DNA of 64,000 nt, from positions 1,315,764 to 1,379,763 of the forward strand of contig CBDDOW010000006.1 of NCBI GenBank assembly GCA_965232175.1, read 5' to 3'. Made by a program: the position numbers and the translations under genes. The DNA is from Nitrospirales bacterium (GTDB lineage Bacteria > Nitrospirota > Nitrospiria > Nitrospirales > UBA8639). Shown here one piece after another: positions 6,737 to 30,872 of the stretch (positions are counted from its first letter, which is position 1; each line of letters opens with the position of its first letter). The notes under the pieces are model-generated. The model was not told where the DNA came from, searched no databases, and saw nothing but the letters and a program-made list of their open reading frames with translations.

Positions 6737-6826
6737 CCGCGGAACCCACGGCGACGTCTATCCCCGGTAGTGTTCACAAAAGAAAAATTGGTATCCTTGA
6801 GCAGCCCGGGAGGTCTGTGCATCACC

Positions 6827-7513
6827 ATGATACGAGGCGTTCTTCTGTTGCTGCTGATCCTGGCCGTGTTGGTCGGACCGCAGGTGTGGACCAAATGGGT
6901 CTTCAACAAACATCGCGGGCGTCGCGAGGATTACGCGGGAACGGGCGGCGAGTTGGCCCGGCATTTGCTCGATCGTTTTGAAATGGCGCACGTGCGGGTC
7001 GAGACCACGGAACTCGGCGACCACTATGACCCGCAGGCCAAAGCGGTCCGGTTGCTCCCGGATCACTATCACGGCAAGTCGTTGACCGCGGTGACGGTCG
7101 CGGCGCACGAGGTGGGCCACGCCATTCAGGATCGAACCGGATACGGGCCGTTGCGGGAACGCACGAAACTCGTCCGGTGGGCGCAAGGCGCGGAAAAAGC
7201 CGGGTCCTTCGTCATGCTCGGGATTCCCATCGTCGCCGGGCTGACCCGTTCGCCGGCCGGCGGGCTGCTGGTGTTGCTGGCGGGGCTTGCCGTGATGTCG
7301 ATGGGAGCGTTGGTGCATCTGGTGACCCTGCCCGTGGAATGGGATGCCAGCTTTCGCCGGGCCCTTCCGATTCTCGAGCAAGGCCGGTATGTTCCGCCGC
7401 AGGACATGGACGGCGCGCGAACCATTCTGACGGCCGCGGCGCTGACGTACGTTGCGGCGTCACTGGGCGGGTTGCTGAACGTCTGGCGATGGATCATGCT
7501 CCTGCGCCGGTGA
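6827..7513 (+). CDS. membrane zinc metallopeptidase (YugP-like, HExxH)
   Basis: N-terminal TM segment, HEVGHAIQ zinc motif, and C-terminal TM segments. Confidence 0.65.
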   Translation: MIRGVLLLLLILAVLVGPQVWTKWVFNKHRGRREDYAGTGGELARHLLDRFEMAHVRVETTELGDHYDPQAKAVRLLPDHYHGKSLTAVTVAAHEVGHAIQDRTGYGPLRERTKLVRWAQGAEKAGSFVMLGIPIVAGLTRSPAGGLLVLLAGLAVMSMGALVHLVTLPVEWDASFRRALPILEQGRYVPPQDMDGARTILTAAALTYVAASLGGLLNVWRWIMLLRR

Positions 7514-7559: not shown

Positions 7560-7883
7560 TTATGAAGCAACACCGCCCTTTGGGCTATTTTCGCCGATTC
7601 CTTCCTGCATATAATCGACAACAATTCTGACAAGCTGTTTAATCGTATCGTTGCACCTATGGTATGTAATGTTTTCTAGAGCTTTGTCTCCATATTGTCG
7701 AATCGCGTCACTAACCAGTGCATGAATAAACGACTGCGTTGTTGCATCAACACCGTCGAAATTCAATATAACCTTTTGATTTTGCGCCAGTGCTGGAAAA
7801 AGTTCGTTACGTCGGATATCCCTTGCGATGTCTTTGTTCTCTGCAAAAGATCCTGCTTTCGCAAAAATATTAATTCGTCTCAT
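7560..7883 (-). CDS. STAS-like DUF4325 domain protein
   Basis: 107 aa. KVILNFDGVDATTQSFIHALVSDAI matches my memory of the STAS-like DUF4325 fold. The ATGA overlap with the upstream ATPase gene suggests coupling. AT-richer than the flanks. Confidence 0.55.
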   Translation of the reverse strand: MRRINIFAKAGSFAENKDIARDIRRNELFPALAQNQKVILNFDGVDATTQSFIHALVSDAIRQYGDKALENITYHRCNDTIKQLVRIVVDYMQEGIGENSPKGGVAS

Positions 7884-8854
7884 GATGTGAACCTCGGTTT
7901 TTTGTATCGTGCCTTCCTGCGTTCTCGTATTTCTTTGCCATATGTTTCTCGGATTAAATCCAAAAGATTCGAGAATTCTCGTGTCCTATCGAGCGCGATA
8001 TTTACGCCAACAACTGTGCCCTTCCAATATGGGTATGTTTCATCCTTTGAGTGCTTATCTTCAAACGGATCGGCGGCTAAAACGGTGCGGCTTGTCGTTG
8101 GTTTTCGGAGTAATTTATACAATGCCTTCCCGCTGTAGATGATAAAGAAATCTCTATTTACACTCGCAATCGATTTGGTAAAAAACAATCCAGCTCCAGC
8201 GTTTTCCGGCGTCCCCCCCTCTCGTTTGGTTGTACCAGTAATCCCGGGCTGTAAGGCAAGCCGAATTGCGTCCATGTCAGTCAAGGCTGGATATGATTGA
8301 TTTATGGCTTTCTTAATGCCAATCCCCGTATCAGCAATCCCAATCCCGACCGAATTGCTCTTTTTGTAATATTGGGCACATATAATTGCGCCATGTTCTG
8401 CCTGCGCATGTTCGATTACGTTTCTGACTAATTCGCTGGCGATATAACGCAGGGTTTGGGCTTGGGCTGGCCGATCTTGAAGATGCAGCAATGGGATCAT
8501 GTTTGTAATAAATTGTGTGGCTTCGTCTGAGTTTTGAATCCTCGACAAGGGGATAAACCGACCGGAGGGGTCATGTTCTAGAACCGTATCCTCTGCTGGG
8601 TCAAGCCCCAAAAAATCCAGGAGCCCCATGCGAATGATGTAATTTTTCGACTTTGACGCGAATTTAATGCATTGAATATGTCGGGTTTCGACCGTTGAGC
8701 CAAGTGCCGCAATCATCGCTAAAACCACTGGATGTACAGCCATCCACTTCTCATTTGCTCTTATTTGAAGTTCCCCCGGCGAGGCTGGGTCAAAATTTCT
8801 CAGAAAATGGTTAATATTACCCAGGAAGGCGCTATTTGGTATATAAATCTTCAT
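7880..8854 (-). CDS. GHKL/histidine-kinase-like ATPase (RsbW/SpoIIAB-like) with unknown N-terminal domain
   Basis: Bergerat-fold motifs: ELVRNVIEHA (N box), IADTGIGI (G1), GAGLFF (G2). The ~130-aa N-terminal region has no recognisable motif. Confidence 0.6.
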   Translation of the reverse strand: MKIYIPNSAFLGNINHFLRNFDPASPGELQIRANEKWMAVHPVVLAMIAALGSTVETRHIQCIKFASKSKNYIIRMGLLDFLGLDPAEDTVLEHDPSGRFIPLSRIQNSDEATQFITNMIPLLHLQDRPAQAQTLRYIASELVRNVIEHAQAEHGAIICAQYYKKSNSVGIGIADTGIGIKKAINQSYPALTDMDAIRLALQPGITGTTKREGGTPENAGAGLFFTKSIASVNRDFFIIYSGKALYKLLRKPTTSRTVLAADPFEDKHSKDETYPYWKGTVVGVNIALDRTREFSNLLDLIRETYGKEIRERRKARYKKPRFTS

Positions 8855-8862
8855 GCTTGAAA

Positions 8863-8910
8863 TTTACCGGGAATCCAGGTATTTTGTCAAATACCTGGAT
8901 TCCCGGTAAA
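8863..8910. repeat. perfect 22-bp inverted repeat (hairpin, 4-nt loop)
   Basis: tttaccgggaatccaggtattt tgtc aaatacctggattcccggtaaa, 9 nt upstream of the ATPase start codon. Confidence 0.95.
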
Positions 8911-9128: not shown

Positions 9129-9365
9129 ATGAGGCAGAACATGAGCGCAATTGTTGGTGATGACGGATCAGGCCGGTATGTCGATCTGGTTGCGAAGTAC
9201 TATGGGGACCCGGAATTTCGGGCACGGATGGATGCGGACCCGGCCGGAACGTTGAAGGCTGAGGGCTTCGAGATCCCCGAGGGCGCGGAGGTGCGAATCG
9301 TGGTGGATTCCGGCAACGCCGTGAACATCGTGCTGCCGCCCTCACCCGGGGACTCAGCCGGATAA
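9129..9365 (+). CDS. NHLP (nitrile-hydratase-like leader peptide)-related small protein without obvious core
   Basis: DPEFRARMDADPAGTLKAEGFEIPEGAEVRIVVDSGNAVNIVLPPSP follows the NHLP leader pattern. It ends ...GDSAG with no Cys/Ser/Thr-rich core. Confidence 0.55.
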   Translation: MRQNMSAIVGDDGSGRYVDLVAKYYGDPEFRARMDADPAGTLKAEGFEIPEGAEVRIVVDSGNAVNIVLPPSPGDSAG

Positions 9366-9429
9366 CCGTCCCGCCCTGGGCGAGGCCAGGCGCCGCCCGA
9401 TTGAGCCTGAATCGAGGAGGGATTCACCC

Positions 9430-9714
9430 ATGCAAACGATTGATGAAATGCGAAAACAGTTGATTGCCAAGTCCACGGACGACCTGGCCTTCCGGAGCCG
9501 GTTGTTGGCGGAGCCCCGGGCCGTGGTCGAGGAGGAGTTCGATATCACGGTGCCGGAGGGCATGGACGTGCGGGTCCTGGAGGACAGCCCCCAGGCGGTG
9601 CACCTGGTGCTGCCGCCCGAGCCCAAACTCAACATGCAGGATATGCGGCAGACGACTGGCGGGACGGGCATGCCCAGTGGCTGCTCGGGTGGCAGCATGA
9701 ATCTCTACGAGTGA
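9430..9714 (+). CDS. NHLP-family RiPP precursor 1
   Basis: Leader is MQTIDEMRKQLIAKSTDDLAFRSRLLAEPRAVVEEEFDITVPEGMDVRVLEDSPQAVHLVLPPEP. It has a GG motif followed by the core TGMPSGCSGGSMNLYE. The RBS gaggaggg is upstream. Confidence 0.8.
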   Translation: MQTIDEMRKQLIAKSTDDLAFRSRLLAEPRAVVEEEFDITVPEGMDVRVLEDSPQAVHLVLPPEPKLNMQDMRQTTGGTGMPSGCSGGSMNLYE

Positions 9715-9775
9715 TGATGGCCCGCGGCTTTTCCGGCGTTGTCGTCGCGCCTCCCTGTCCCGAACGGGGCCGGTT

Positions 9776-12013
9776 GTGACCGGCAACGTTGCGTCTGCGC
9801 CGCAGGGCGTGCGGCATGTGACCGCGGCCGACAAGGGGCTGGTGACCGTTCCGATGCTGGCGCCGCACCTCCGGTTCGACGTCGTGAACTCGGACCGGGT
9901 GCTGTTGGTGGCGGAGGGTGTTGCCGTTGAACTGAATGGGCGGTGCTTTGGGAGCCTGCTGCCGTTGCTCGATGGCAGTCGCACGCGGCGGCAGGTGCTT
10001 GCCGAGCTTGAGAACGGGCATTCGCCGGTTGAGGTGCAGACGGCGTTGGTCCGGTTGGCTTCTTCCGGCTTCGTGGTGTCGGCGGAGTTCAATATGGCGC
10101 CGGAGCTGGCGGCGTTCTGGAGCGCGCTCGGCGCCTCTCCGTCTCGGGCGCAGGAATGCCTTGGCGCGACCCCGGTCGAGGTCCGCGGGGACGATGGCGC
10201 GCTTGCGACGTATCTTGCCGGTCTCGGCGCAGTCGTCGGCGCGGACGCGCCGGGGCTTCGCCTCGTTGTCACCGACGACTATCTGTCGCAACGGCACGAG
10301 GCGTTTCATGCGGCCGGCGGGAACGGCCGGCCATGGTTGCTGGTCAAGCCGACGGACGCGCGAGCCCTGTTTGGCCCGGTCTTCGGTCGGGACGCCGCGT
10401 GCTGGCGCTGTTTTTCACGGCGCCTGTCCGCCACGAGTCAACTGGAGTCCTTCCTGCGCGGGAAATCCGCCCGGCCCGGCTCGTCGCCGCTCGCGGCGGC
10501 GGCCTACGCCCTGGCGGCGGTGGAAATCGCCAAATGGATCGTCTTCGGAGAGGAGGCGCCGCTCCATGATCGCGCGATGTCCGTTGATGCCGCCACCGGA
10601 ACCGGCTTTCACCATGCGCCGCGCTGGCCGCAATGTCCCGACTGCGGCGTGAACGCGGACCCTGCGCCTGTGCCGCCGCAGTTGGGCGCGAGCGCGAATA
10701 CGCTGCGCAACAGCGGCGGGACGAGATCGATTCACCCCGAGGAGACGCTGAGACGTCTTCGCCATCTGGTCGATCCGGTGACCGGTATCGTCACGGACCT
10801 CCGGCGGATCGGGGACCCGTCCGATCCGTGGTTCTTTGTCTATCTGGCCAGCTTTGCCCCGACCGTCCTGGCTTCGAGCTATGCGGAGTTACGCTTCGGG
10901 ATTGTCCGCGGGTCCAGCGCCGGCAAGGGCAGCACGCCCGCCCAGGCGGAAGCCAGCGCGCTCTGCGAGGCGATCGAACGGTATTCGGGTATCCTCCAGG
11001 GCGGGGAGGTCGTGCTGCGGCGCAGGATGGATGAATTCCCCGATGGCGCGGCGTTGCCGCCCAATGCAATCGAACGGTTCAGCGACGTCCAGTTTGAACA
11101 GCCGCCCGACGTGGCGCGTCTCCGGTCAAGGCCGGTGCCGTTCGACGCCTCGCAGGCGCTCGACTGGACGCCGGTCTGGTCATTGACCGCGGAGGCCTGG
11201 CGGTACATCCCCACCCGGCTGCTCTACTATGCCTCGCCGGTGGAGGGGGAAGCCAACCAGTTCCTCGCCAATTCCAATGGCTGCGCATCCGGCAACACGT
11301 TCGAGGAGGCGATTCTCCAGGGCTTTTTCGAGCTTGTCGAGCGCGACGCGTTTGCCTGCTGGTGGTACAACCAGATCCGGGTACCGGCGGTGGACCTGGC
11401 GAGCTTCGACAACCAGTATCTGGCCGAAGCCCCGGCGCGCTACGAACGGGCCGGCCGGGAGATGTGGATGCTCGACGTCACCCACGATCTCGGCATTCCG
11501 GTGTTCGTCGCGTTGTCCCGCTGCGACTCGGGCGGCGAGGATCGCATCCTCTACGGGGTCGGGTGCCATTTCGACCCGCTTGTGGCCGCGTCGCGCGCGG
11601 TCTGCGAACTCAATCAGATCCATCTGGCGGGGACGCTCCCGCAGAAACAGGACAGCGCTCGCGCCGACGAATGGCTGCGCACGGCGAGGATAGCCGACAA
11701 ACCCTATCTTGCGCCGGACCCTGCCACGTCGCTCCGCAAGGCGCCGCCTTCCCGCGCGCCCGGCACGGGCGACCACCGCGACGATATCGCGCTCTGCCGC
11801 CGGATCGTGGAGGATGCGGGCATGGAATTCCTGGTGCTCGACCAGACCCGGGCTGACATTGGTCTGCCGGTCGCGCGGGTGATTGTTCCGGGACTCAGGC
11901 ATTTCTGGCCGAGGTTCGGATCCGGCCGGCTCTACGACGTCCCCGTTGCCATGGGCTGGCGCGCTGCGCCGCTGGCCGAAGCCGAATTCAACCCCGATGA
12001 GCCGGTGTTCTGA
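9776..12013 (+). CDS. fused TOMM-type cyclodehydratase (E1-like leader-binding domain + YcaO domain)
   Basis: 745 aa. The YcaO region is SSAGKGSTPAQAEASALCEAIERYSG...ANSNGCASGNTFEEAILQGFFELVERDAF. The size and architecture resemble PatD/TruD-type heterocyclases. The start could be 9776 or 9854. Confidence 0.8.
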   Translation: MTGNVASAPQGVRHVTAADKGLVTVPMLAPHLRFDVVNSDRVLLVAEGVAVELNGRCFGSLLPLLDGSRTRRQVLAELENGHSPVEVQTALVRLASSGFVVSAEFNMAPELAAFWSALGASPSRAQECLGATPVEVRGDDGALATYLAGLGAVVGADAPGLRLVVTDDYLSQRHEAFHAAGGNGRPWLLVKPTDARALFGPVFGRDAACWRCFSRRLSATSQLESFLRGKSARPGSSPLAAAAYALAAVEIAKWIVFGEEAPLHDRAMSVDAATGTGFHHAPRWPQCPDCGVNADPAPVPPQLGASANTLRNSGGTRSIHPEETLRRLRHLVDPVTGIVTDLRRIGDPSDPWFFVYLASFAPTVLASSYAELRFGIVRGSSAGKGSTPAQAEASALCEAIERYSGILQGGEVVLRRRMDEFPDGAALPPNAIERFSDVQFEQPPDVARLRSRPVPFDASQALDWTPVWSLTAEAWRYIPTRLLYYASPVEGEANQFLANSNGCASGNTFEEAILQGFFELVERDAFACWWYNQIRVPAVDLASFDNQYLAEAPARYERAGREMWMLDVTHDLGIPVFVALSRCDSGGEDRILYGVGCHFDPLVAASRAVCELNQIHLAGTLPQKQDSARADEWLRTARIADKPYLAPDPATSLRKAPPSRAPGTGDHRDDIALCRRIVEDAGMEFLVLDQTRADIGLPVARVIVPGLRHFWPRFGSGRLYDVPVAMGWRAAPLAEAEFNPDEPVF

Positions 12014-12174
12014 TGCTGATACCCGGAAGCGCGCGGTCAGCTCAGGCAAACGCAAGCCCGGGACGCGGGATTGAAAAAAATCTTCCCGGAATGCCAAGGA
12101 ATCCGCTCCGGCTGACGTTTACTATTAATATAAATGACAGAGGCGTCACGTAACTTGGCAAAGGAGGTATGTCA

Positions 12175-12480
12175 ATGCAAACGATGGACGAGATGCGGGC
12201 GCAATTGCTGACAAAATCCACGGACGACCTGGCCTTTCGGAGCCGGTTGCTCGCGGAGCCCCGGGCCGTGATCGAGGAGGAGTTCGGGATCACGGTGCCG
12301 GCGAGCGTGGACGTCCGGGTCATGGAGGACAGCCCCCAGGCGGTACACCTGGTGCTGCCGCCCGAACCCAATCTCAGCCTGGATCAGTTGGATCAGGCGT
12401 CCGGCGGCGGATTTTCTTACACGGCGGAAGATTGGGATCCGCAGGATCAGGGTAGTCATGGCATGTCCGGAACCGAATGA
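12175..12480 (+). CDS. NHLP-family RiPP precursor 2
   Basis: The leader is nearly identical to precursor 1. The core after ASGG is GFSYTAEDWDPQDQGSHGMSGTE. The RBS aaggagg lies 7 nt before the ATG at 12175. Confidence 0.75.
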   Translation: MQTMDEMRAQLLTKSTDDLAFRSRLLAEPRAVIEEEFGITVPASVDVRVMEDSPQAVHLVLPPEPNLSLDQLDQASGGGFSYTAEDWDPQDQGSHGMSGTE

Positions 12481-12651
12481 TGCCGGCGCGCGTTGGCCAT
12501 GACTCATTGTGAGGTCTGTCGTCGGCTGCCCTGCTGCCGCGGGCCGGGACGGGGGATCGAACAAATGTCCCCGGAGGAATCTTCACGGGCTGGTGCCTTT
12601 ATGATAAGGTCGTGATCTTACGGACTTGAGTTCGATGGTGTTTTTTTGCTT

Positions 12652-13188
12652 ATGCAATCGGACGAAATCTTGGCTCAGCGAGTCGTGGCAGGCGATGCCG
12701 ACGCCTTTGTCGAGTTGCTCGATCGGCATTACGGCCGGATCTATCGGATTGGTTTCCACGCGCTGGGCGATGCCGAAGCCGCGGCTGATTTGGCGCAGGA
12801 CATTTGTGTGGCCCTGCCCGCCAAGCTCTCTCAGTTTCGCGGTGATCACGGGTTCTCCAGTTGGCTCTACCGGGTGGTCGTCAACGCGGCAAGCGATGCG
12901 CGACGGCGCAGATCTTCGCGGCAACGCAACGAGGCCCTCTATGCCGAGGCGGAAGCCCTGAGGCGGGCCGGCGAGGTTGCGCGCGCGGAAGAGTTGATGT
13001 GGTTGCGGCAGGCGCTGGATTGCCTTCCCGAGAATCTGCTGGCCACCGCGATTCTCGTCGTGGACCAGGGGCTGCGGCATGCCGACGCGGGCGAGATTCT
13101 GGGTGTGTCTGAAGTGACCGTGTCATGGCGGATGCACCAGATACGAAAGTGCTTGCGCGCCATGGCAGCGAGTGAGGATATGGCATGA
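12652..13188 (+). CDS. ECF-type RNA polymerase sigma-70 family factor
   Basis: Region 2 is DAFVELLDRHYGRIYRIGFHALGDAEAAADLAQDI...SSWLYRVVVNAASD. Region 4 is LPENLLATAILVVDQGLRHADAGEILGVSEVTVSWRMHQIRKCL. Confidence 0.8.
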   Translation: MQSDEILAQRVVAGDADAFVELLDRHYGRIYRIGFHALGDAEAAADLAQDICVALPAKLSQFRGDHGFSSWLYRVVVNAASDARRRRSSRQRNEALYAEAEALRRAGEVARAEELMWLRQALDCLPENLLATAILVVDQGLRHADAGEILGVSEVTVSWRMHQIRKCLRAMAASEDMA

Positions 13189-13634
13189 CCGATCCACTTG
13201 AAAGATTGAAAGCTGCATTCCGCGCCACTGTGCCGGGCGTTGCCGAGGCAGCGCGGAAACGGGCGATTGAGGCTGCGCTGACGGCCTTTGGTCGCCATCG
13301 ACCGGGGAAGACCCGGTCGGCGAACACAACGCACAACAACAAAGGAAAGGATGTGCAGATGCAAACGATTGATGAAATGCGAAAACAGTTGATTGCCAAG
13401 TCCACGGATGATCAGGCCTTCCGGGGCCGGTTGTTCGCGGAGCCCAGGGCCGTGATTGAGGAGGAATTCGGGATCACGGTGCCGGCGAGGGTGGACGTGC
13501 GGATCATGGAGGACAGCCCCCAGGCGGTGCATCTGGTGCTGCCGCCCGAACCCAAGCTCGACATGAAGGAGTTACAGCAGGCCTCGGGAGGCTTTTGCGC
13601 CGAGACCTGTTCTGCGGAGGAGTTGTATGAATGA
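13185..13634 (+). CDS. NHLP-family RiPP precursor 3, in frame with a 58-codon N-terminal extension that overlaps the sigma-factor stop codon
   Basis: The minimal precursor is 13359-13634 (MQTIDEMRKQLIAK...ASGG FCAETCSAEELYE). The upstream in-frame ORF starts with an ATGA overlap at 13185. Confidence 0.7.
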   Translation: MTDPLERLKAAFRATVPGVAEAARKRAIEAALTAFGRHRPGKTRSANTTHNNKGKDVQMQTIDEMRKQLIAKSTDDQAFRGRLFAEPRAVIEEEFGITVPARVDVRIMEDSPQAVHLVLPPEPKLDMKELQQASGGFCAETCSAEELYE

Positions 13635-14680
13635 TAGCGGAAGCTGGTCGGACGCCCTTGCCGGCGGATGAATCGCGGTGTGAAGGCCCGGGGCACGTTG
13701 CAGAGGCGTGGCAGCCTGTGCGGTGCTTCCTGCCGGAGACGCTGGTGGACGAAGCGGGCTGGGGCGGCCTTCTCTCCCTGGTGGCCGGGCTGCCGCGTCT
13801 GGCCATGAACAGCGTGTTCGGGTTCGAAAGCCGGCTTGGGGAACCCCGTCTCGCCGCGGATTTCCATCTGCTTGTGCAATTGGCCACGCCTCTGGCTGAT
13901 TGGTTTCGGCGTTTCCGCGGCGCGGCTGCCGCGGGGCGGCTTCTGAAACGGCTGGGGGACCGCGAGTTCCCCCTGGCGGACCGGGTCCGCAATATCATTC
14001 TCGAATACGATCTCGTAGACGCGTCTCCGGCCGGTCCCCCGCCTGAACCCGGCCTGTTCCTGACCAGGCTCGACATGAAGCCGTCCGTCGCCGACACCGA
14101 CACGCTCCTCCGGGCCGTTCTGGACAGCGTTGAATGGCCGGAGGACGAAACAGAGTGCCGGGCGGTCCGGAAGACCGTAGACACGATCCCACAGAGCGGA
14201 CGTCTTGCCCATCTCGCGGTCCTGCCCGAACGGCGCCCTCGCGCTATCCGTCTTGGCGCCAAGGTCGGCTTGGAGGAACTGCCGGTTTTTCTTCGGGAGG
14301 TCGGCTGGCGTGGCGCGACCCCGGCCACGTGCCTGGCGATGGGGGATTTGCCGGGGATCAGGTCCGAATGCACGATCGCCTTCGACATTGTGGGAGGCAG
14401 GATTTCGCCGCGACTTTCGTTGGAATTTTTCCATGAGCAGCGAATACCCTCCACGCCGCCGGGAGCCTGGCGGGGATTCATCGACCGTCTGGTGGACGAG
14501 GGACTGTGCCTGCCGGACAAGGCGCGCGGGTTGCATGCGTCGTTCATGCCCTGTCAGGGGTTCGACGGGAACGGCTTCTGGACCGTGCGGGGAGGAATCC
14601 ATCATTTCAAGCTTGCGGTCGAGGCGGACGGCGCGGTCTCGGCCAAGGGGTATCTGGTCGTGTTCTACCTGCGTTGCTAG
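13631..14680 (+). CDS. hypothetical protein (349 aa) translationally coupled to precursor 3
   Basis: The ATG overlaps the precursor stop codon (gaatgatag). Amino-acid composition looks protein-like. I recognise no family. Confidence 0.5.
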   Translation: MIAEAGRTPLPADESRCEGPGHVAEAWQPVRCFLPETLVDEAGWGGLLSLVAGLPRLAMNSVFGFESRLGEPRLAADFHLLVQLATPLADWFRRFRGAAAAGRLLKRLGDREFPLADRVRNIILEYDLVDASPAGPPPEPGLFLTRLDMKPSVADTDTLLRAVLDSVEWPEDETECRAVRKTVDTIPQSGRLAHLAVLPERRPRAIRLGAKVGLEELPVFLREVGWRGATPATCLAMGDLPGIRSECTIAFDIVGGRISPRLSLEFFHEQRIPSTPPGAWRGFIDRLVDEGLCLPDKARGLHASFMPCQGFDGNGFWTVRGGIHHFKLAVEADGAVSAKGYLVVFYLRC

Positions 14681-14854
14681 GGGTGGGGTCCTCCCGAACG
14701 CTGGTTCAACGCGACGCGCACGGTCATGCAGGCGTCGGGGAGCCTGAAGCATCCACAAACAGGAGACAGCGTTGAAGTCCCTGGGATTCTGTCGGCGTCA
14801 TGACCGGGAGCCGGGCGGCAGTGGACCGGCCGGGTCGGGCGTACACAGGGTGCC

Positions 14855-16261
14855 ATGAGTTTTTTCGATCTGCCCCGCACGCCGGGGATCCATTGCCGAT
14901 TGCGCCGGGGGCACGATCTCTCCCGTTCCCGGGACGGCGGGTCCTTCACGCTGCGGCGGCCGGGCGGCGAATCCGAGCCGTTCGTATCGTATGAGGAAGC
15001 GTTCGCTGCCGCGCTCGACCGTCTGTCCGCGGGCGCGCATGCCTCCGAGCTGAGAAACCTTGCGCTCGGGGCCGGCGGACCGGCGCGGGCGGCCGCTTTC
15101 ATGATGTTGCTCCGGCGGCTGGCGGCTGCCGGTCTGGTCGAGTTTCCTCTTCTCGACGAGGCGGGAGAGCGGGCTGTGCTGTTGCCGCAGATTGCCACGT
15201 TCGAGCCTGCGCTCGCGGAGGAGCCGGCGCCGGACATCAGCCTCGACCGGTTCGCCTTCATCCGACGCGACGACCGGGGCTGGCTCCTGGAGTCGCCGCT
15301 GGTGGGGGCGCGGCTGTCGTTTTCCGATTCGGCGGCGCTGGACTCGCCTGTTGTGCGCCGCGCGCTCGCCGCGGCCGGGTTTCTTGAACAACGCGATGAC
15401 GATCCCCGGCATCGGGAAGCGCTCGATTTGTGGGAGTTCCACGATCTCGCTTTCTACCGTCATCATCGCGGGGGCTGGCATCAGGATCCCATGGGCGGGA
15501 TCTATCCCCATCTGGGAAGGATCGAGTCGCCGCCGGCGATCCGTTCGCCCTGGCCCGGGACACGCATCACGCTCCCCGTGGCCGTCGACCGGCCAAGCGC
15601 GGCCCTTGCCGACGTGCTGGAGCGGCGCGCTTCGATTCGGGCCTACGATCAGCGTCACCCTATTACGCTCAACGACGTCGGCGCGCTGTTCGACCGCGCT
15701 GTCCGCATCCGTGGCGACCTTGTCGTCTCCGGTACGTTCGGAGGCGGACCGGTCCGCACCGGGGCGCCGAGGCGGCCGTATCCCACCGGAGGCGGGTGCG
15801 GCGAGCTGGAGATTTACCTGGCCATCGACCGGGCCGCGGATATCGAGACAGGGCTCTATCACTACGATGCCGCGGACCACGCACTCGTGCGGCTCTGCGA
15901 CCGAACGCCCGCGGTCGCGGCGCTGCTCGCCGAAGCCCGGGATTCTGCCGGCGGCATCGACGAGACGCAGGCGCTCGTCATCGTGGCCGCGCGGTTTGCC
16001 CGGGTCATGTGGAAGTACAGCGCCATTGCCTATGCGCTCATCCTGCGCGATACCGGTGTTCTTTACCAGACGCTCTATCTGGCCGCGACCGACCTCGGAC
16101 TCGCTCCGTGCGCGCTCGGCAACGGCAACGCCGCGGCCTTTGCCGAGGCCACGGGCCTGGACCCGTTGATCGAGGGCAGCGTCGGGGAATTCCTTCTGGG
16201 CGGCCGGCCGACCGGCCCGGCGATGGCCGCGGCCGAGCAGCGGGCCGGCCGGGACGCATGA
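14855..16261 (+). CDS. SagB-type (nitroreductase-fold) azoline dehydrogenase
   Basis: ERRASIRAYD...RPYPTGGGCGELEIYLA....GLYHYDAADHAL...ALGNGNAAAFAEATGLDPLIEGSVGEFLLG resembles the SagB/ThcOx family. Confidence 0.75.
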   Translation: MSFFDLPRTPGIHCRLRRGHDLSRSRDGGSFTLRRPGGESEPFVSYEEAFAAALDRLSAGAHASELRNLALGAGGPARAAAFMMLLRRLAAAGLVEFPLLDEAGERAVLLPQIATFEPALAEEPAPDISLDRFAFIRRDDRGWLLESPLVGARLSFSDSAALDSPVVRRALAAAGFLEQRDDDPRHREALDLWEFHDLAFYRHHRGGWHQDPMGGIYPHLGRIESPPAIRSPWPGTRITLPVAVDRPSAALADVLERRASIRAYDQRHPITLNDVGALFDRAVRIRGDLVVSGTFGGGPVRTGAPRRPYPTGGGCGELEIYLAIDRAADIETGLYHYDAADHALVRLCDRTPAVAALLAEARDSAGGIDETQALVIVAARFARVMWKYSAIAYALILRDTGVLYQTLYLAATDLGLAPCALGNGNAAAFAEATGLDPLIEGSVGEFLLGGRPTGPAMAAAEQRAGRDA

Positions 16262-16356: not shown

Positions 16357-16740
16357 TCAGTCGCCGCAAGCCGGCGGGTTCCCCAACGTTCTCAGCGCCG
16401 CCTCCGCCGGGGTTTCCAGTTTTTTCCTGCGGTTACATTCCAGACATGCCGGGACGGTGTTGCCCTTGGTCGATTTTCCGCCGCGGGCCAGGGGCACGAC
16501 GTGGTCCATGGACAGTTGGTCCGGTTGAAACAGCTTGCCACAGTAGTGGCAGCGCCCGTTGTGGAGTTGCCGCTTCCACCAGGGCGTGCGTTTGAGGGCG
16601 CGGGCTTTTTCCCGCTCTTTGCGAATCCGTGTGGCGGTTTCGGGATCGGGGTCGATTTCAAAGTAACGTTCGGGCGGCATTCCCGTGAGCTTAAAGAAGT
16701 TTTCTGAATTTTTCACGTCGTTGGTCCACTGCCGGCCCAT
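16357..16740 (-). CDS. HNH endonuclease
   Basis: CHYCGKLFQPDQLSMDHVVPLARGGKSTKGNTVPACLECNRRK. Confidence 0.8.
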   Translation of the reverse strand: MGRQWTNDVKNSENFFKLTGMPPERYFEIDPDPETATRIRKEREKARALKRTPWWKRQLHNGRCHYCGKLFQPDQLSMDHVVPLARGGKSTKGNTVPACLECNRRKKLETPAEAALRTLGNPPACGD

Positions 16741-16828
16741 ACGAGGCGCAGACCGCCTCTCTCCATCGTGACGCGGGGCGCGACACATTCCGCTGGCGAC
16801 GGTTCCGGGCTGATGGTATACTGCCGTC

Positions 16829-17461
16829 ATGGACCGGCGAACACGGGCACTCGGGGTGACAGGCGGCCTGGCGGCCGCTCTTTTTTTGACGGGCGGGCTG
16901 AGCGGGGCCGCGATCGATCACGGCGTGTTCGAGGGCTTCATCCACCATATCGCCCGGCAGATTACCCGGGACAAAGTCGATTTTGCGGTCGCGGAGTCCT
17001 GTACGTCGTGGTTTTATGAGCAATTGAAACCGTCTCCCGGAATGCGGCCTGACGTGAAACGCCTGTCCTTTGTCGCGGACGCCGATCCCGACCCCGATTT
17101 CCACGCCTGTGCCGGTCGCTACCCCGGCATCGAGGAAGCGCGTCAGGCCTTTGCGCATACCCAATCCACCCTCTCGTTGAGCCTGACGTTTTATCAATTG
17201 GCCCTGATTGCCGACCGGGATGATGACGAACGCTATGACGCGAGCGAACTCCGGGATATATTGGCTTCCCTGAACGTGACGCCGTTGCCGGGAGAGTATC
17301 CCGGTCAGCTCCTTGCCACGCTGACGGGAAAATTCGACGACGTTCGTGAGGCGGTCGAGTTCACGATTCTGACCGATGGCATGCAGGCGCTGTACAGCAA
17401 GGGGTATCGCTTTACCAGCGCGGATCAGGCTGCGCTGGGCCGCGTGACGGGCGAGTCCTGA
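16829..17461 (+). CDS. secreted hypothetical protein with one EF-hand-like loop
   Basis: Signal-like N-terminus. DRDDDERYDASE fits the D-x-D-x-D...E 12-residue EF-hand loop. Confidence 0.4.
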   Translation: MDRRTRALGVTGGLAAALFLTGGLSGAAIDHGVFEGFIHHIARQITRDKVDFAVAESCTSWFYEQLKPSPGMRPDVKRLSFVADADPDPDFHACAGRYPGIEEARQAFAHTQSTLSLSLTFYQLALIADRDDDERYDASELRDILASLNVTPLPGEYPGQLLATLTGKFDDVREAVEFTILTDGMQALYSKGYRFTSADQAALGRVTGES

Positions 17462-17469
17462 TTCCTCAA

Positions 17470-17614
17470 GAACCCTCTAGTTTATTTATTGTGATAGCGG
17501 GATGCAGGGCAAGGCGTCCCGGAGCGAAATCCGAGGCTTATCAAACGAGATAGGCGAGGGTTGAGCGAGGACACAACGCCGCCATGCGCCCGCTATCGCA
17601 ATAAACCCTACCCT
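17470..17614 (+). mobile_element. MITE-like ~150-nt element, copy 1
   Basis: The core gtgatagcgggatgcagggcaaggcgtcccggagcga...gagggttgagcgaggacacaacgccgccatgcgcc is shared with 39731-39880 (inverted) and 54347-54497. It has terminal inverted repeats ...tttattgtgatagcggg / cccgctatcgcaataaa... Confidence 0.75.
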
Positions 17615-18324
17615 ATTCGTTCGACGGCTTCTCGTGATCTGCTCCGCACCGTCTGATCCCAATCCTCCTTCATCGTATATTCCAATTTGGCCTTGGCTTC
17701 CGTGGCGCGCATGCGTCCCAGGGCCAGCGCCGCGGAGCCCCGCACGTATGCGTGATCGTCTTCCAATGCCTTGATCAACAGGGGAATGCTTTCCCGGTGT
17801 TGCACGACGCCCAGGTAACTGGCGGCCATGCCCCGGACCCGGTGCTGCTTGTCGCCCAGGGAGCGTTTGAAGGTGTACACGAACACCTCGGCCATGTCCG
17901 GAGCCACGCTTTCCAGTCCTTCCAGTTGATAGTCGTTGAGTTCAATGAGTTGGCTGGCGAGATCGAACCGCTTTCGCGGCGCCTTTTCGCCGGAAAATTT
18001 TTTGAGGAGCGCGGCGCGCCGGGTTTTTTGGTTTTTCGCGCGCTTGATCTTGCGCACGTTCACCCACGTGATGAGCGTGAGCGCGACGGCCAGGAACAGG
18101 ACGGGGACGACTTCATCGACGATAAAGTCCTGGGTGTCGAAATCCAAATGATTCCAAATCCAGATCCCGCCGACGACAATGATGACCAGGGCCAGGGCCG
18201 TGGTGAGGGTGGCGTGTCCCCGCTGGTTGTCGAGATGCGATGACGGCGCGTCGATGGCCATGATGCCCAAGGAACGGTTCCGCGCGCGGCCAGTGAACGC
18301 GCGGGCGGGGTTCCCGGTTTTCAA
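17608..18324 (-). CDS. membrane-anchored HEAT-repeat protein
   Basis: HEAT/PBS-lyase-like repeats VRGMAASYLGVVQHRESIPLLIKALEDDHAYVRGSAALALGRM. TM segments lie N-terminal. The start is TTG 18324 or ATG 18261. Confidence 0.65.
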   Translation of the reverse strand: MKTGNPARAFTGRARNRSLGIMAIDAPSSHLDNQRGHATLTTALALVIIVVGGIWIWNHLDFDTQDFIVDEVVPVLFLAVALTLITWVNVRKIKRAKNQKTRRAALLKKFSGEKAPRKRFDLASQLIELNDYQLEGLESVAPDMAEVFVYTFKRSLGDKQHRVRGMAASYLGVVQHRESIPLLIKALEDDHAYVRGSAALALGRMRATEAKAKLEYTMKEDWDQTVRSRSREAVERIG

Positions 18325-18327
18325 GCG

Positions 18328-19113
18328 TTACCCGATTGCCCGGCGGAAGGCCTTGGCCCCGCCGTACAGACACACGGCATCGAAAACGGCGAGGATCACG
18401 AAGGCCAGGGCCACCCGGGGAATGGCGGCGTCCCACCCCGTGATAATGAGCGGGCGCACGGCGTCGATAACCCAGGTCATCGGATTCACCAGGGCCACCG
18501 CCTGCATCCATCCCGGCATGGCGGAGAGGGGCACGAGCGCCGAGCTGAGAAAAATCATGGGCAGGGACAGAAAGCCCAGCAGGGAGAAAAAGTCGCCGTG
18601 GCTTTTGACGGAAAACGCAATGCCCATGGAGATGGCGGTCAGCCCCACGCCGAACAGCATGCCGATCGCCAGGATCACGGCGATGCCCGGCAGCCCCGTT
18701 TCGGGGCGCACGCCGAAGAGGAACGCGATGCTCAGAATGACCAGAATCTGCATGCCGGTAATGGCCATCACGAAGAGGTAGCGGCTGAGGATCACGGAGG
18801 ACCGGTGAATGGGCGTGGACATCATGCGTTCCAGGAACCCGTTCTCTTTGTCGAACAGCAGATCCACGCCTCCGGCCAGTCCGTTGTTGAGGACCGTCAT
18901 GATGACCACCCCGCCCGCCAGGAAACTCATATAATTCGGGGCCTGGAGAATTGTGACGTTGGCGGCGTGCTGAAAGAGGCTGCCGAAGAAGATCAGCCAG
19001 AACAGCATGGGTTGGACCAGGGTAAACAGCATGCTGAATTTTTCCCGGCTGAGCCGGCGAACCCACCGCATCGTGAGGGCGAGCACTTCCTGTCTGTAGT
19101 GTTGGATGGTCAT
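18328..19113 (-). CDS. ABC-2 type transporter permease
   Basis: Six predicted TM segments. It sits 13 nt downstream of the ATPase gene. Confidence 0.75.
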   Translation of the reverse strand: MTIQHYRQEVLALTMRWVRRLSREKFSMLFTLVQPMLFWLIFFGSLFQHAANVTILQAPNYMSFLAGGVVIMTVLNNGLAGGVDLLFDKENGFLERMMSTPIHRSSVILSRYLFVMAITGMQILVILSIAFLFGVRPETGLPGIAVILAIGMLFGVGLTAISMGIAFSVKSHGDFFSLLGFLSLPMIFLSSALVPLSAMPGWMQAVALVNPMTWVIDAVRPLIITGWDAAIPRVALAFVILAVFDAVCLYGGAKAFRRAIG

Positions 19114-19126
19114 CTGTGATCTTCTG

Positions 19127-20107
19127 CTATTCCTCCGCCGCGTCCGGAGTGCCTCCCCGCAATCCGTGCCCGGTATGGGCGACAAACACGTCGTCGAGCC
19201 GGGGCCGGTGATACTCGATCCCATCGAGACTGCAATCAAGGCGTTGGGCGACTTCCATCACCGCGGGGAGAGATTTCTCGGGCGATTCCACGAGCACGTC
19301 CAGTCCGGTTGGTTTGAGGCGCACGTCGCGGACGAAGGGCAGGGTGAGGACGCCTTCGCGCAGGCGGGAGAGTTTGTCTGTTTCGTGCTCCTTGACCGTG
19401 ACGGACAGGCTGTCGCCGCCCAGTCCGGTCTTCAACTCCAGCGGCGAGCCGATGATCCGAATGGTTCCGCCCTCGATGATCGCGAGTCGATCGCACAGTT
19501 GGTCGGCCTCTTCCAGGTAATTGGTCGTCATGACGATGGTGATCCCGTTCTCACGGAGTTGGCGGATGTAGTCCCAGATCCGCAACCGGCTTTGGACGTC
19601 CAATCCCAGCGTGGGTTCGTCCAAAAACACGATTTGGGGGCGAGGCAGCAACCCGCAGGCAATATCCAGTTTGCGTTTCATGCCCCCGGAGTAGGTTTTG
19701 ACCACGCGGTCCGCGTGCTCTTCGAGATTCACGAGCTTCAGCAATTCGGGGATCCGTTCCTGCATGTCCGCCGGGGAAAGATGGTAGAGCCCGCCCAGCA
19801 ACTCGAGGTGTTCCCGACCGGTCAGGAACCGGTCCACGGCGCGTTCCTGCGGCACGTACCCGATCAGGCTTCTGACGGTATCCGCCTCCGTCACGACGTC
19901 GTGCCCCAGCACCGTCGCCGTTCCGTGGGACGGGGGCAGCACGGTGATCAGCATCCGCAGGGTCGTGCTTTTCCCCGCGCCATTGGGGCCCAGGAGTCCG
20001 AAAATTTCACCGGCGTGAACCGTGAACGACAGATCCTCGACGGCCGTCACCGGACCGAAGGTTTTCCCCAAACGGGCGGCTTCGATCACGACCGCGGCAT
20101 GCATCAT
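19127..20107 (-). CDS. ABC transporter ATP-binding protein (DrrA-like)
   Basis: Walker A GPNGAGKST, signature YSGGMKRKL, Walker B IVFLDEPTLGLD. Confidence 0.9.
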   Translation of the reverse strand: MMHAAVVIEAARLGKTFGPVTAVEDLSFTVHAGEIFGLLGPNGAGKSTTLRMLITVLPPSHGTATVLGHDVVTEADTVRSLIGYVPQERAVDRFLTGREHLELLGGLYHLSPADMQERIPELLKLVNLEEHADRVVKTYSGGMKRKLDIACGLLPRPQIVFLDEPTLGLDVQSRLRIWDYIRQLRENGITIVMTTNYLEEADQLCDRLAIIEGGTIRIIGSPLELKTGLGGDSLSVTVKEHETDKLSRLREGVLTLPFVRDVRLKPTGLDVLVESPEKSLPAVMEVAQRLDCSLDGIEYHRPRLDDVFVAHTGHGLRGGTPDAAEE

Positions 20108-20772
20108 CCCCACCCTGACAATTGGGGTTCCCCGTCGAGTTTGAACTTCAGGAGGTCGATCAGGCGGCGGGTTTGTTGAAGCAGGCTTTCGGCTTCGAGC
20201 AGGAACTGTTTTTCCAACGGCGTGAAGTCCAGACACGAGGACAGCCCATTCACCAGCACGCGGTCCGTCATGGCGTCATCGCTCACAAGCTGGCAGAGGG
20301 TCTCGGCGTTTCGTGACTCCAGGTAGCGCGTCGCCAACGCCGTGAGGGTTGAGCGCGCGGCCCCTTCGGTAATCGTTTGAAACGGTTCGCTCGGCTCCAA
20401 CGCGATTTTGGCCTTGCGATACCGGGCATCAAAGAATTCCTCCCGGATCGTATACCGGGAGAGGCCTTGCAGGATCAGGTTCGACCGGCCATCCTGTAGC
20501 GGCTCGATATGGGTCATTCGTCCCACGCATCCCACGGCAAAGACGGGCGGATTGCCGTGATACCGGTCTTCCCAGCCTTGCTTGAACAACGCCATGCCGA
20601 TGCAGGCGCCTTCCCGGCTGGCATCGGCGACCATTTCCCGATACCGGGGCTCGAAAATATGAAGCGGCAGGTACGTGTCGGGAAACAGCACCACGTTGGG
20701 AAGCGGAAAAATCGGAATGATCTCCGGGACGGGAAAGGCCTTCGAAGAAGACGTGTCATTTACTGCGGGCAT
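20104..20772 (-). CDS. LON N-terminal substrate-binding domain protein
   Basis: IPIFPLPNVVLFPDTYLPLHIFEPRYREMV. ATGA overlap with the ABC ATPase gene. Confidence 0.75.
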   Translation of the reverse strand: MPAVNDTSSSKAFPVPEIIPIFPLPNVVLFPDTYLPLHIFEPRYREMVADASREGACIGMALFKQGWEDRYHGNPPVFAVGCVGRMTHIEPLQDGRSNLILQGLSRYTIREEFFDARYRKAKIALEPSEPFQTITEGAARSTLTALATRYLESRNAETLCQLVSDDAMTDRVLVNGLSSCLDFTPLEKQFLLEAESLLQQTRRLIDLLKFKLDGEPQLSGWG

Positions 20773-30300: not shown

Positions 30301-30801
30301 CGGCCGTACCGAGGATGGAAGCCGAGTGACCCGTACTACAAAGTGGCTCGGTTGATGATTCGGGCGAAGTACAACCCGGCGTTCCCGTACCACGTGACCA
30401 TGGCGAAGCACGCGCCGTACGTCGCAACCGCGAAATCCGTGAAGGGCCATGAAACCCGACCGGACGGACGGGCCATCGCAATGGATACGGGGTATCAATC
30501 CAACTTCCGGTATGGGGCGCAACAGTCCTTCACCCGTGACTGGTTGATGCCGATGCACCAAACCGACTCACTGCCGGGCAAACACGCAGTGGGCTGGAAG
30601 TTCAAATTCGGGTATCAGGTGGACAACCATGCGGTCAACACCACTCCGAAAGAATGTCTGATGCGGATCACCAAAGCAGAGGACGGTGGTATCGGCGGCA
30701 GGGGTCCATGGGAACCAGTCCGGACCGGGTTTACGCCTGGGCAGGAAAATGAGTTCATGATCAAGTGGCTCAAAGGCGACCACATTAAGATCAAGGTGTA
30801 A
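27364..30801 (+). CDS. nxrA: nitrite oxidoreductase alpha subunit, periplasmic (Nitrospira) type
   Basis: Tat signal MFLSRRQFLKVTTGTVAAVALADKALA. It is a 1145-aa molybdopterin (DMSO reductase family type II) enzyme, followed directly by nxrB. Confidence 0.9.
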   Translation: MFLSRRQFLKVTTGTVAAVALADKALALTALQPVVEVGNPLGEYPDRAWERVYHDQYRYDSSFTWVCSPNDTHACRVRSFVRNGVVMRVEQNYDHQTYEDLYGNRGTFAHNPRMCLKGYTMHRRVYGPYRLKGPLMRRGWKAWMDAGSPEFTPDVMNKYKFTSRYLDDMLRVSWDTAFTYLAKAMVIISERYSGEAGARRLREQGYPPEMIEMTKGSGVRCMKFRAGMPILGVIGKMAVTRMNGGCGALLDHWIRKVKPAQAQGGRYWSNYTWHGDQNPAHPFWSGVQTSDNDLSDMRFAKLNTSWGKNFVENKMPEAHWKLESIERGARVVVITPEYNPTAYRADYWIPVRPETDAALFLGACKIMFDENMHDHDFCSAYTDMPILVRTDTLQYLDPRDVIKGYSLPDFSKTYSGKVQTLNPAKIARLGGFMVWDTNKNQAVPIHRELVGWHYRNSGIEAAFTGTYRVKLLNGREVDVAPIFQLYQVHLQDYDLDTVHQINRSPKDLIVRWARDSGTIKPATIHNGEGTNHYFHQTIIARGAAMVLIIAGNVGKFGTGQHTWAGNYKAGIWNSTPWSGGGLGTHTAENPFKITTDPNAHGKEVHVRGYYYGEEVAYWNHGDTALIVNTPKYGRRVFTGKTHMPTPTKFRWVANVNVLNNAKHHYDMVKNVDPHIECIVTQDIEMTSDVNHADVAMGVNTWMEFTYPEHTATVSNPWFQVWKGGIRPLYDTRNDLDTTAGVASKLTDMTGDGRFRDYFKFVYDNRVDVYVQRLLDASCTGYGYSVDTMLKSEKGWMVLCRTYPRQPFWEETNESKPQWTRTGRYENYRTEPEAIEYGENFISHREGTEATPYLPNAIMTTNPYVRPDDYGIPITAQHHDDKTVRNIALPWQEIKRYSNPLWEKGYQFYCVTPKTRHRVHSQWSVNDWVQMYESNFGDAYRMDKRTPGVGEHQLHMNPQSAKDRGINDGDYVYVDGNPVDRPYRGWKPSDPYYKVARLMIRAKYNPAFPYHVTMAKHAPYVATAKSVKGHETRPDGRAIAMDTGYQSNFRYGAQQSFTRDWLMPMHQTDSLPGKHAVGWKFKFGYQVDNHAVNTTPKECLMRITKAEDGGIGGRGPWEPVRTGFTPGQENEFMIKWLKGDHIKIKV

Positions 30802-30872
30802 ACATCGAACCAAGATCGAATGTGGAATTTTAGAAATTGAACTGACACACGTTCAAAGAAACGGAGGAAACC

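Follow-up and report, generated by a model that had tools for sequence, protein, structure and literature searches.

Peptides in which a leader of the nitrile hydratase-like type (NHLP) is combined with azole-forming enzymes constitute an established class of peptides that are made by the ribosome and modified after translation (RiPPs). The NHLP/Nif11 class of thiazole/oxazole-modified microcins (TOMMs) was predicted in 2010 by Haft, Basu & Mitchell (PMC2887384) and classified again in 2015 by Cox et al. (PMC4603692). Ten NHLP precursors, MprE1-10, have been shown biochemically together with the YcaO protein MprC and the flavin oxidase MprD in Methylovulum psychrotolerans (PMC12455567), and nostatin A has been isolated as an azole proteusin (PMC11583998). 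Here we analyze a gene cluster of this type, located at positions 9129-16261 (plus strand) of a 64,000-nucleotide stretch, hereafter the window, of contig CBDDOW010000006.1 from a Nitrospirales bacterium (assembly GCA_965232175.1). An earlier reading of the window, made from the letters without database searches (the sequence-only reading), had taken it for the minimal machinery of thiazole/oxazole-modified peptides and had seen as unusual what accompanies this machinery and what is missing from it. This account has to be revised. The combination of NHLP, YcaO and dehydrogenase has been predicted, reconstituted and found in an isolated product, and the azole part of the cluster is therefore not new.

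Prenylation guided by related leaders has also been described. MppC carries out leader-dependent ABBA (alpha-beta-beta-alpha) prenylation of a Nif11-leader lanthipeptide precursor (PMC12715784), and NctPC, cited in PMC13290415, is likewise an ABBA prenyltransferase of Nif11-leader lanthipeptides. Another enzyme, PalQ of Paenibacillus alvei, prenylates the NHLP-type peptide PalX, which has a short core with a C-terminal Trp, and its activity is enhanced by the leader (PMC10853753). The same study assigned PalQ to the isoprene synthase domain superfamily (IPR008949) and used ComX next to it in the assays; in our own reading it is an all-alpha enzyme of the ComQ type and not an ABBA barrel.

The cluster consists of eight intact open reading frames (ORFs), all on the plus strand and with a GC content at third codon positions (GC3) of 0.71-0.84, at the coordinates originally proposed. 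When evaluated with the curated NCBIfam cutoffs (50.9 bits for TIGR03793, 219.25 for TIGR03604, 36.9 for TIGR03882, 78.4 for TIGR03605 and 42.9 for TIGR02937), three leaders, the cyclodehydratase, its leader-binding domain, the oxidase and a sigma factor of the extracytoplasmic function (ECF) type all passed. Every family model named in the sequence-only reading thus matched above its threshold, and the assignment of 9129-16261 as an azol(in)e RiPP cluster with multiple NHLP precursors, a fused E1-YcaO protein and a SagB-type enzyme is confirmed at the level of sequence, with matches far beyond chance. The likeliest products are azole-containing peptides that are probably prenylated as well, the prenylation being suggested by fold and synteny only. 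We give this reading, i.e. NHLP-leader (proteusin-type) peptides carrying azoles and probably also prenyl groups, a probability of roughly 60%. Scans of the cluster for promoters, terminators and repeats returned only the duplicated leaders and weak consensus matches.

Three small ORFs have the NHLP leader and GG motif that had been ascribed to them. Precursor 1 (94 aa, 9430..9714, TIGR03793 63.1 bits) is preceded by a GGAGG ribosome-binding site and has the core TGMPSGCSGGSMNLYE after a TTGG motif, while precursor 2 (101 aa, 12175..12480, 72.6 bits) and precursor 3 (91 aa, 13359..13634, 69.0 bits) both have ASGG, followed by the cores GFSYTAEDWDPQDQGSHGMSGTE and FCAETCSAEELYE, respectively. 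The leaders are of one structured NHLP type, share 83-87% DNA identity over 233 nt and also match Pfam NHase_alpha; they contain no Cys, so that the CxxCSC metal site is missing. The cores are short (13-23 aa) and mutually different, although a C-terminal LYE is common to those of precursors 1 and 3. Cys occurs once in the core of precursor 1, twice in that of precursor 3 and not at all in that of precursor 2, as had been pointed out before; the latter does include Trp, Tyr and Phe.

The ORFs of precursors 2 and 3 open further upstream, at 12169 and 13185, respectively. The true starts are likely 12175 and 13359, since both give MQT(I/M)DEMR behind a GGAGG/AAGGA ribosome-binding site. The sequence AAGGAGG is situated 7-8 nt ahead of the ATG at 12175, while the N-terminus of precursor 3, MQTIDEMRKQLIAKSTDD, is identical in precursor 1 and has AAGGAAAGGA upstream of its start. 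In the longer ORF (13185-13634), the NHLP match covers residues 63-136. The 58 codons in frame with precursor 3 (13185..13358, plus strand) are Ala/Arg-rich, and their ATG overlaps the stop codon of the sigma factor gene (ATGA). They are probably not part of precursor 3, but their status is uncertain: GC at codon positions 1/2/3 is 0.64/0.55/0.62, a weak signal compared to the GC3 of 0.77 in precursor 3, and the stretch had no homolog in any related locus and no Pfam or NCBIfam match. The stretch may represent what is left of an anti-sigma gene, or else a small ORF. A Cys-rich small ORF at 12493-12615 was dropped owing to its absent coding signal.

The two core enzymes of the azole pathway were found as proposed. 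A 745-aa protein (9776..12013; TIGR03604 255.6, TIGR03882 108.9 and Pfam YcaO 316 bits) is a fused winged-helix/E1-like leader-binding/YcaO cyclodehydratase of the LynD/TruD type, which aligns over its full length with LynD (2e-150), TruD (1e-146) and MusD (2e-143). Its C-terminal catalytic half is about 55% identical to LynD/TruD and aligned through the last residues, and it belongs to a very large YcaO subfamily with more than 3,000 matches at E<=1e-50. The protein is predicted to convert core Cys, possibly also Ser/Thr, to azolines using ATP. Its partner, a SagB/ThcOx-type FMN azoline oxidase of 468 aa (14855..16261; TIGR03605 148.6 bits; Pfam Nitroreductase and ThcOx), gave a match to CyaGox, an oxidase from cyanobactin biosynthesis, at 5e-49. 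Orthologs of the oxidase were identified in three related loci, namely L018 (62-81% identity, frameshifted), L019 (46%) and L021 (54%).

Between precursor 3 and the oxidase lies the gene for a 349-aa protein (13631..14680, plus strand), the start of which overlaps the precursor 3 stop codon (ATGA), in an arrangement for translational coupling. The sequence-only reading had noted this coupling and had called the protein a member of an unknown family. Both statements are accurate as far as they go, given the ATGA overlap and the lack of Pfam and NCBIfam matches, but the protein has a predicted ABBA (prenyltransferase barrel) fold and belongs to a large family syntenic with NHLP precursors, and the coupled pair is a conserved cassette rather than an oddity. 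An AlphaFold2 (AF2) model built from a 60-sequence alignment, with a predicted local distance difference test score (pLDDT) of 90.2 and a predicted template modeling score (pTM) of 0.89, consists of ten antiparallel strands in five predicted alpha-alpha-beta-beta units. When the model was compared with the PDB using Foldseek, all of the top 50 matches were ABBA/DMATS aromatic or cyanobactin peptide prenyltransferases, 34 of them at E<=1e-3. These include EpzP, IptA, DMATS1, AnaPT, FunA, NphB/Orf2, CdpNPT and FgaPT2, as well as AtaPT, PagF, AmbP1/3, LimF, CloQ, KgpF, PatF and FamD1. The protein is accordingly listed here as a predicted leader-dependent peptide prenyltransferase.

An alignment of 128 family members revealed the best-conserved positions to be E66, D77, E125-Y126-D127, R201, R207, D252, H325-x-K327 and K339-x-Y341. 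Seven of these (E66, D77, D127, R201, K327, K339 and Y341) are 93-99% conserved even though the members are divergent, and all of the conserved charged and aromatic barrel-strand residues are kept in the protein of the window. Such a pattern would fit a barrel that binds a diphosphate and stabilizes a carbocation, as in prenyltransferases.

The family to which the 349-aa protein belongs is large. Exhaustive HMMER searches with a three-sequence query gave 2,966 representatives (clustered at 50% identity) at E<=1e-3, of which 1,773 also reached E<=1e-10. A word-indexed homolog search found only two relatives (31-32% identity), or four when a 60-sequence profile was used, and because this search and the sequence libraries gave nearly nothing, it was the exhaustive HMMER approach that made the family visible. 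It has no database name, and its members are found in the nitrite-oxidizer genome, an Acidobacteria metagenome-assembled genome (MAG) and many metagenomes.

Genomic context could be assessed at 13 distinct loci with a family member, several of which are interrelated and should not be taken as independent counts. In nine of them, i.e. L003 (=L004/5), L009/L010, L012-L015, L016/L017, L019 and the window, an NHLP precursor is found directly upstream on the same strand, and the pair of precursor 3 and the 349-aa protein thus represents a conserved two-gene cassette, which is here joined to an azole module. At two further loci, L006 and L007/8, NHLP genes occupy some other position. The majority of the loci also include a trio of C39-peptidase ATP-binding cassette (ABC) transporter, second ABC transporter and HlyD, which is typical of NHLP systems. 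A YcaO gene accompanies the family member in only three loci, namely the window, L002 and L019. Cores of the cognate precursors are very short, and Trp or Tyr is present in nearly all of them, as exemplified by FYY, TGWGGPGQGS, VSWNNHGT, AGPWLSGDGGHHT, AAPWGGGGGGPPS, ...SYTTSW and TNVCSCHY, alongside the precursor 3 core of the window; among the cassette cores are ones beginning with AGPWLS... and AAPWGG....

Some additional features were observed at loci of this family. Two divergent prenyltransferase-like paralogs are present per NHLP/C39-ABC locus in L003 (10001-11089 and 19266-20327) and L007 (2185-3792 and 8001-9095), which suggests either two successive modifications or two substrate specificities. 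Tailoring genes beside the cassettes comprise a JmjC/cupin-type oxygenase (L007, 4381-5904) and a cytochrome P450 (L003, 20510-21089). No natural fusion of NHLP and prenyltransferase-like domains was found among the long family members. One prenyltransferase-like protein, P0056 (L020, 1-1350), has an extra N-terminal domain cut by the contig end, and the 95 N-terminal residues that are visible show a faint match to a squalene-hopene-cyclase C-domain (E 0.076). If real, this would be a cyclase-prenyltransferase fusion like NctPC.

Taken together, a pathway can be proposed in which the precursor leaders would dock on the cyclodehydratase via its winged-helix/E1-like domain, after which azolines would be formed in an ATP-dependent manner at core Cys, possibly also Ser/Thr, and oxidized to azoles by the ThcOx/CyaGox-type flavoprotein. 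These steps are modeled on homology to LynD/TruD and the precedent of MprC/MprD. The ABBA-barrel protein, guided by the leader, would use an isoprenoid diphosphate to prenylate an aromatic side chain in the core, the candidate targets being the Tyr of LYE in precursors 1 and 3 and Trp or Tyr in precursor 2. Finally, cleavage after GG and export would be performed by a C39-ABC system encoded elsewhere, an assumption derived from the relatives.

Several observations weigh against this proposal, and most of them concern the prenylation, for which the case is built on structure prediction, conserved barrel residues and gene neighborhood. The 349-aa protein has no sequence match in Pfam, NCBIfam or PDB, the models PTase_Orf2, Trp_DMAT and the NCBIfam cyanobactin prenyltransferase included. 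A profile search of the family against PDB sequences found no prenyltransferase, and a scan of 60 family members at E<=1 produced neither a prenyltransferase family nor any consistent Pfam match. The Foldseek alignments have TM-scores of only 0.45-0.57, at sequence identities of 8-15%. The cores of the window present Tyr, Phe and one Trp, as opposed to the single Trp of most cassettes, and the related azole locus L018 has no prenyltransferase-like gene in the 22 kb that could be seen. An ABBA protein encoded in a RiPP cluster is moreover not necessarily active, PatF being an inactive prenyltransferase homolog in the patellamide pathway. Outside of the prenylation question, tblastn with the relatives' proteins detected no C39 peptidase or NHLM-type ABC transporter in the 64-kb window, and the role suggested below for a core-less leader paralog is a guess.

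These observations lead to the alternative that best survives, in which the pathway makes azoles only and the ABBA-fold protein is a non-catalytic leader-binder or scaffold, or performs some other reaction on the core. It can draw on the missing sequence likeness to any characterized prenyltransferase, on the moderate TM-scores and on the finding that no isoprenoid-supply gene was present in any locus inspected. Conversely, the near-invariance of the barrel-strand residues argues for a conserved active site, the cassette precursors have very short cores, nearly all of them bearing Trp or Tyr, and to our knowledge the prenyltransferase barrel has been described until now in prenyltransferases alone. 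We consider the azole-only pathway unlikely, although it deserves to be taken seriously.

The remaining genes of the cluster can be compared with those of other loci. Because four loci with a related YcaO hold similar gene sets, the window is one version of a recurrent architecture, from which it deviates by its intact ECF sigma factor gene and by the lack of an exporter or protease within 64 kb. In L002, from the Acidobacteria MAG (YcaO 70% identical), the tail of a core-less NHLP is followed by YcaO and a prenyltransferase-like gene. L018 (69%) includes two precursors with the cores FAVCDGGAW and VACCTGGGW, a core-less NHLP, YcaO, a transposase, a sigma factor fragment, a frameshifted oxidase, HlyD and C39-ABC. 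The full combination is found in L019 (53%), with an oxidase, a core-less NHLP overlapping the YcaO start, precursors with the cores NCNYCGCNCVY, TNVCSCHY and ISCMCAVTM, a prenyltransferase-like protein 37% identical to the 349-aa protein of the window, ABC, C39-ABC and HlyD. Lastly, L021 (50%) is a large cluster of the proteusin type in which LanM-like and radical-SAM genes occur together with YcaO and oxidase, followed by a core-less NHLP which ends exactly at GG.

The core-less NHLP of the window, 'lead0' (78 aa, 9129..9365, plus strand), is the first gene of the cluster. It reaches 35.9 bits with TIGR03793, i.e. less than the cutoff, and is 40-44% identical to the three precursor leaders of the window (tblastn E ~1e-10). 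It stops approximately nine residues past the conserved VLPP and thus has neither an L(X)4L linker nor a GG or core. That this ORF at the 5' edge is devoid of a core was seen from the outset; it is, however, no edge artefact, as orthologs stand beside YcaO/oxidase genes in L018 (74% identity), L019 (68%), L021 (53%) and, partially, L002 (73% over 22 aa). In an alignment, the core-less NHLPs form a clade of their own, with 45-66% identity within the clade and 22-39% to precursors. They share the signature RYVDLVAKYYGDPEFRARMDADP...KAEGF.IPEGA and end 5-9 residues after VLP, so that the acidic linker, L(X)4L, is missing.

Wakeel et al. (PMC12455567, PMC12715784) divide the leader into a structured nucleus and a disordered region that docks on the RiPP recognition element (RRE) and C39 domains. 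By this division, the core-less NHLP appears from its sequence to retain the nucleus but not the docking region. Since the tails have no conserved Cys, Ser or Thr, it would not be a substrate for azoline formation, and its being kept next to YcaO/oxidase genes in four out of four relatives argues for a function. Judging by this distribution, we regard it as a conserved accessory gene of this YcaO/oxidase subfamily. One may speculate about a trans-acting role toward the enzymes, be it that of activator, of chaperone or of competitor. The AF2 model of lead0, computed from a shallow alignment of window sequences only, is of low confidence (pLDDT 62.6), and its best fold match, the nuclear magnetic resonance (NMR) structure of the proteusin DprE2, is suggestive only, being non-significant at E 0.07.

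The sigma factor placed inside the cluster by the sequence-only reading is indeed an ECF-type sigma-70 factor of 180 aa (12646..13188, plus strand; TIGR02937 81.7 bits; Pfam Sigma70_r2 and r4_2), and it probably regulates the cluster; an anti-sigma factor belonging to it was not found. A 45-aa fragment of a homolog (62% identical) adjoins the oxidase gene in L018.

The missing exporter is a true departure from relatives that carry both C39 and ABC functions, and the absence first noted next to the cluster holds across the whole window: with C39-ABC, ABC2 and HlyD of L003 as tblastn queries, the sole match was the generic ATPase domain of a DrrA-like gene. Nor is there, according to Pfam and NCBIfam, a protease domain in any ORF of 9129-16261, such as that of the PatA/PatG-type subtilisin proteases. 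This leaves three options: leader cleavage and export by a system encoded at another genomic site, a replacement for such a system, or peptides that are not exported.

Still another interpretation of the missing exporter is that the cluster is decaying or orphaned, having lost its export-protease module and with it any mature secreted product. The comparison with L018 and L019, which hold C39/ABC genes by the oxidase or the precursors, can be read in this way, as can the convergent HNH gene that the oxidase gene meets, the low-GC insert upstream of the cluster and the visible degradation of L018. All eight genes of the window are nevertheless intact, with high GC3 and the family-conserved residues kept, and the 64 kb in which no exporter was found are part of a contig of at least 2.2 Mb. 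In the 2010 study, NHLP systems are moreover reported to have transporters placed away from the precursors. On balance, a decaying cluster seems improbable. The degraded part of L018 (12000-21900) features a DDE transposase, the 45-aa sigma factor fragment and an oxidase split over three frames.

The possibility that the YcaO protein makes thioamides or amidines on these cores, raised by the sequence-only reading and in line with their low Cys content, is very improbable in view of the close identity of its catalytic half to LynD/TruD, which form azolines, the score above the SagD-family cutoff and far below that for thioamidation YcaO proteins (140.7 vs 365), the fused leader-binding domain, the dedicated azoline-oxidase homolog, the absence of TfuA from the cluster and the Cys-rich cores of relatives (NCNYCGCNCVY and VACCTGGGW).

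On the 5' side, the cluster is preceded by a low-GC (~54%) insert of two genes on the minus strand (7560-8854), in which a 324-aa HATPase-like gene overlaps that of a 107-aa DUF4325 STAS-like protein. The N-terminal part of the former resembles the N-terminus of the DISARM protein DrmA (PADLOC E 3e-18), and a hairpin with a perfect stem of about 21 bp follows the insert at 8864-8909. A Zn_peptidase_2 gene (PF04298, putative neutral zinc metallopeptidase; 6770-7513, plus strand) is situated 1.6 kb upstream of the cluster; as a leader protease it has proximity alone in its favor, with the opposite-strand two-gene insert in between.

The 3' boundary of the cluster is set by a stand-alone HNH endonuclease gene (157 aa, 16357-16830, minus strand), which is convergent with that of the oxidase and takes the position occupied in relatives by HlyD and C39-ABC. 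Next to it is a 210-aa ORF (16829-17461, plus strand) whose codon bias is good, although it matched nothing in Pfam, NCBIfam or PADLOC and has no counterpart in the related loci. A HEAT-repeat protein and then a DrrB/DrrA-type ABC-2 permease and ATPase are encoded on the minus strand at 17608-20236. The ABC-2 exporter reported near 18.3-20.1 kb corresponds to the DrrA/DrrB-type pair at 18328-20236. The pair is on the opposite strand from the cluster and separated from it by two genes, and a link between them is unsupported. Further downstream, a probable nxrAB pair of the type II DMSO-reductase family (27364-32162, plus strand) encodes an alpha subunit of 1145 aa and a beta subunit of 429 aa. 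The alpha subunit (27364-30801) aligns end to end with Kuenenia NxrA (PDB 7B04) at 1540 bits, consistent with the label of nitrite-oxidizer given to the genome in the sequence-only reading.

With its azole part, the cluster is a further example of a RiPP class that already has many members, and novelty is to be sought in the two accessory genes. No name or characterized member of the ABBA-fold family was found in the literature and family libraries searched, and the same literature contained no pairing of this family with YcaO/oxidase genes and no mention of a conserved core-less NHLP. It is possible, though we would stop short of calling it probable, that the 349-aa protein represents an unnamed, large family of leader-dependent peptide prenyltransferases or alkyltransferases for NHLP precursors, one that extends well beyond cyanobacteria and would differ in sequence from the F-family as well as from enzymes of the MppC type. 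It would here give rise to prenylated azole peptides, and the core-less NHLP may be a 'leader without cargo' working in trans to modulate the cyclodehydratase or oxidase. The prenyltransferase-like family by itself has a reasonable chance of being a significant, unrecognized enzyme family. Should its members be active, they would provide a large new set of catalysts for leader-guided peptide lipidation and would explain many orphan loci of the type "NHLP + hypothetical protein + C39-ABC". A leader-only NHLP beside a cyclodehydratase could furthermore reveal how RiPP enzymes are regulated in trans by structured leaders. That a slow-growing chemolithoautotroph has such a pathway is also of interest to ecology.

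As for the known systems, the closest solved structures of the two core enzymes are LynD/TruD/MusD and CyaGox/ThcOx (PDB 4V1T, 4BS9, 7U58, 5LQ4), although the window differs from cyanobactin clusters by having neither PatA/PatG subtilisin-type proteases nor a PatE-type precursor, its leaders being NHLPs. The predicted fold of the 349-aa protein is the same as in the classical ABBA/DMATS enzymes (EpzP, NphB/Orf2, IptA, CloQ, FgaPT2) and the F-family (PagF, LimF, KgpF, PatF), whose substrates are small molecules or leaderless cyclic peptides and none of whose models it matches. PalQ and PalX share with the window the arrangement of an enzyme gene adjoining an NHLP-type precursor, PalQ itself not being an ABBA barrel. 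A further likeness is offered by MppC and NctPC, going by their published descriptions: a soluble alpha-beta-beta-alpha barrel is combined with a precursor that has a long, structured NHLP/Nif11-type leader and, as the target, Trp in a short core, and the protein size is comparable, the residue numbering of MppC exceeding 340. Those enzymes are cyanobacterial, paired with LanM and placed with the cyanobactin F-family.

With the NHLP/Nif11 TOMMs and nostatin A, the window has in common the NHLP leader, a cyclodehydratase that groups with the cyanobactin D proteins, the dehydrogenase and the absence of PatA/PatG; canonical NHLP TOMMs carry an NHLM C39-ABC/ABC/HlyD exporter, which the window does not. 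The mpr cluster, going by its description (PMC12455567), is similar in having several NHLP precursors with the L(X)4L linker and GG, a fused YcaO protein containing an RRE, and an azole-making FMN oxidase. Compared to mpr, the window has three precursors instead of ten, and adds an ABBA-fold gene coupled to a precursor, a core-less NHLP and an ECF sigma factor.

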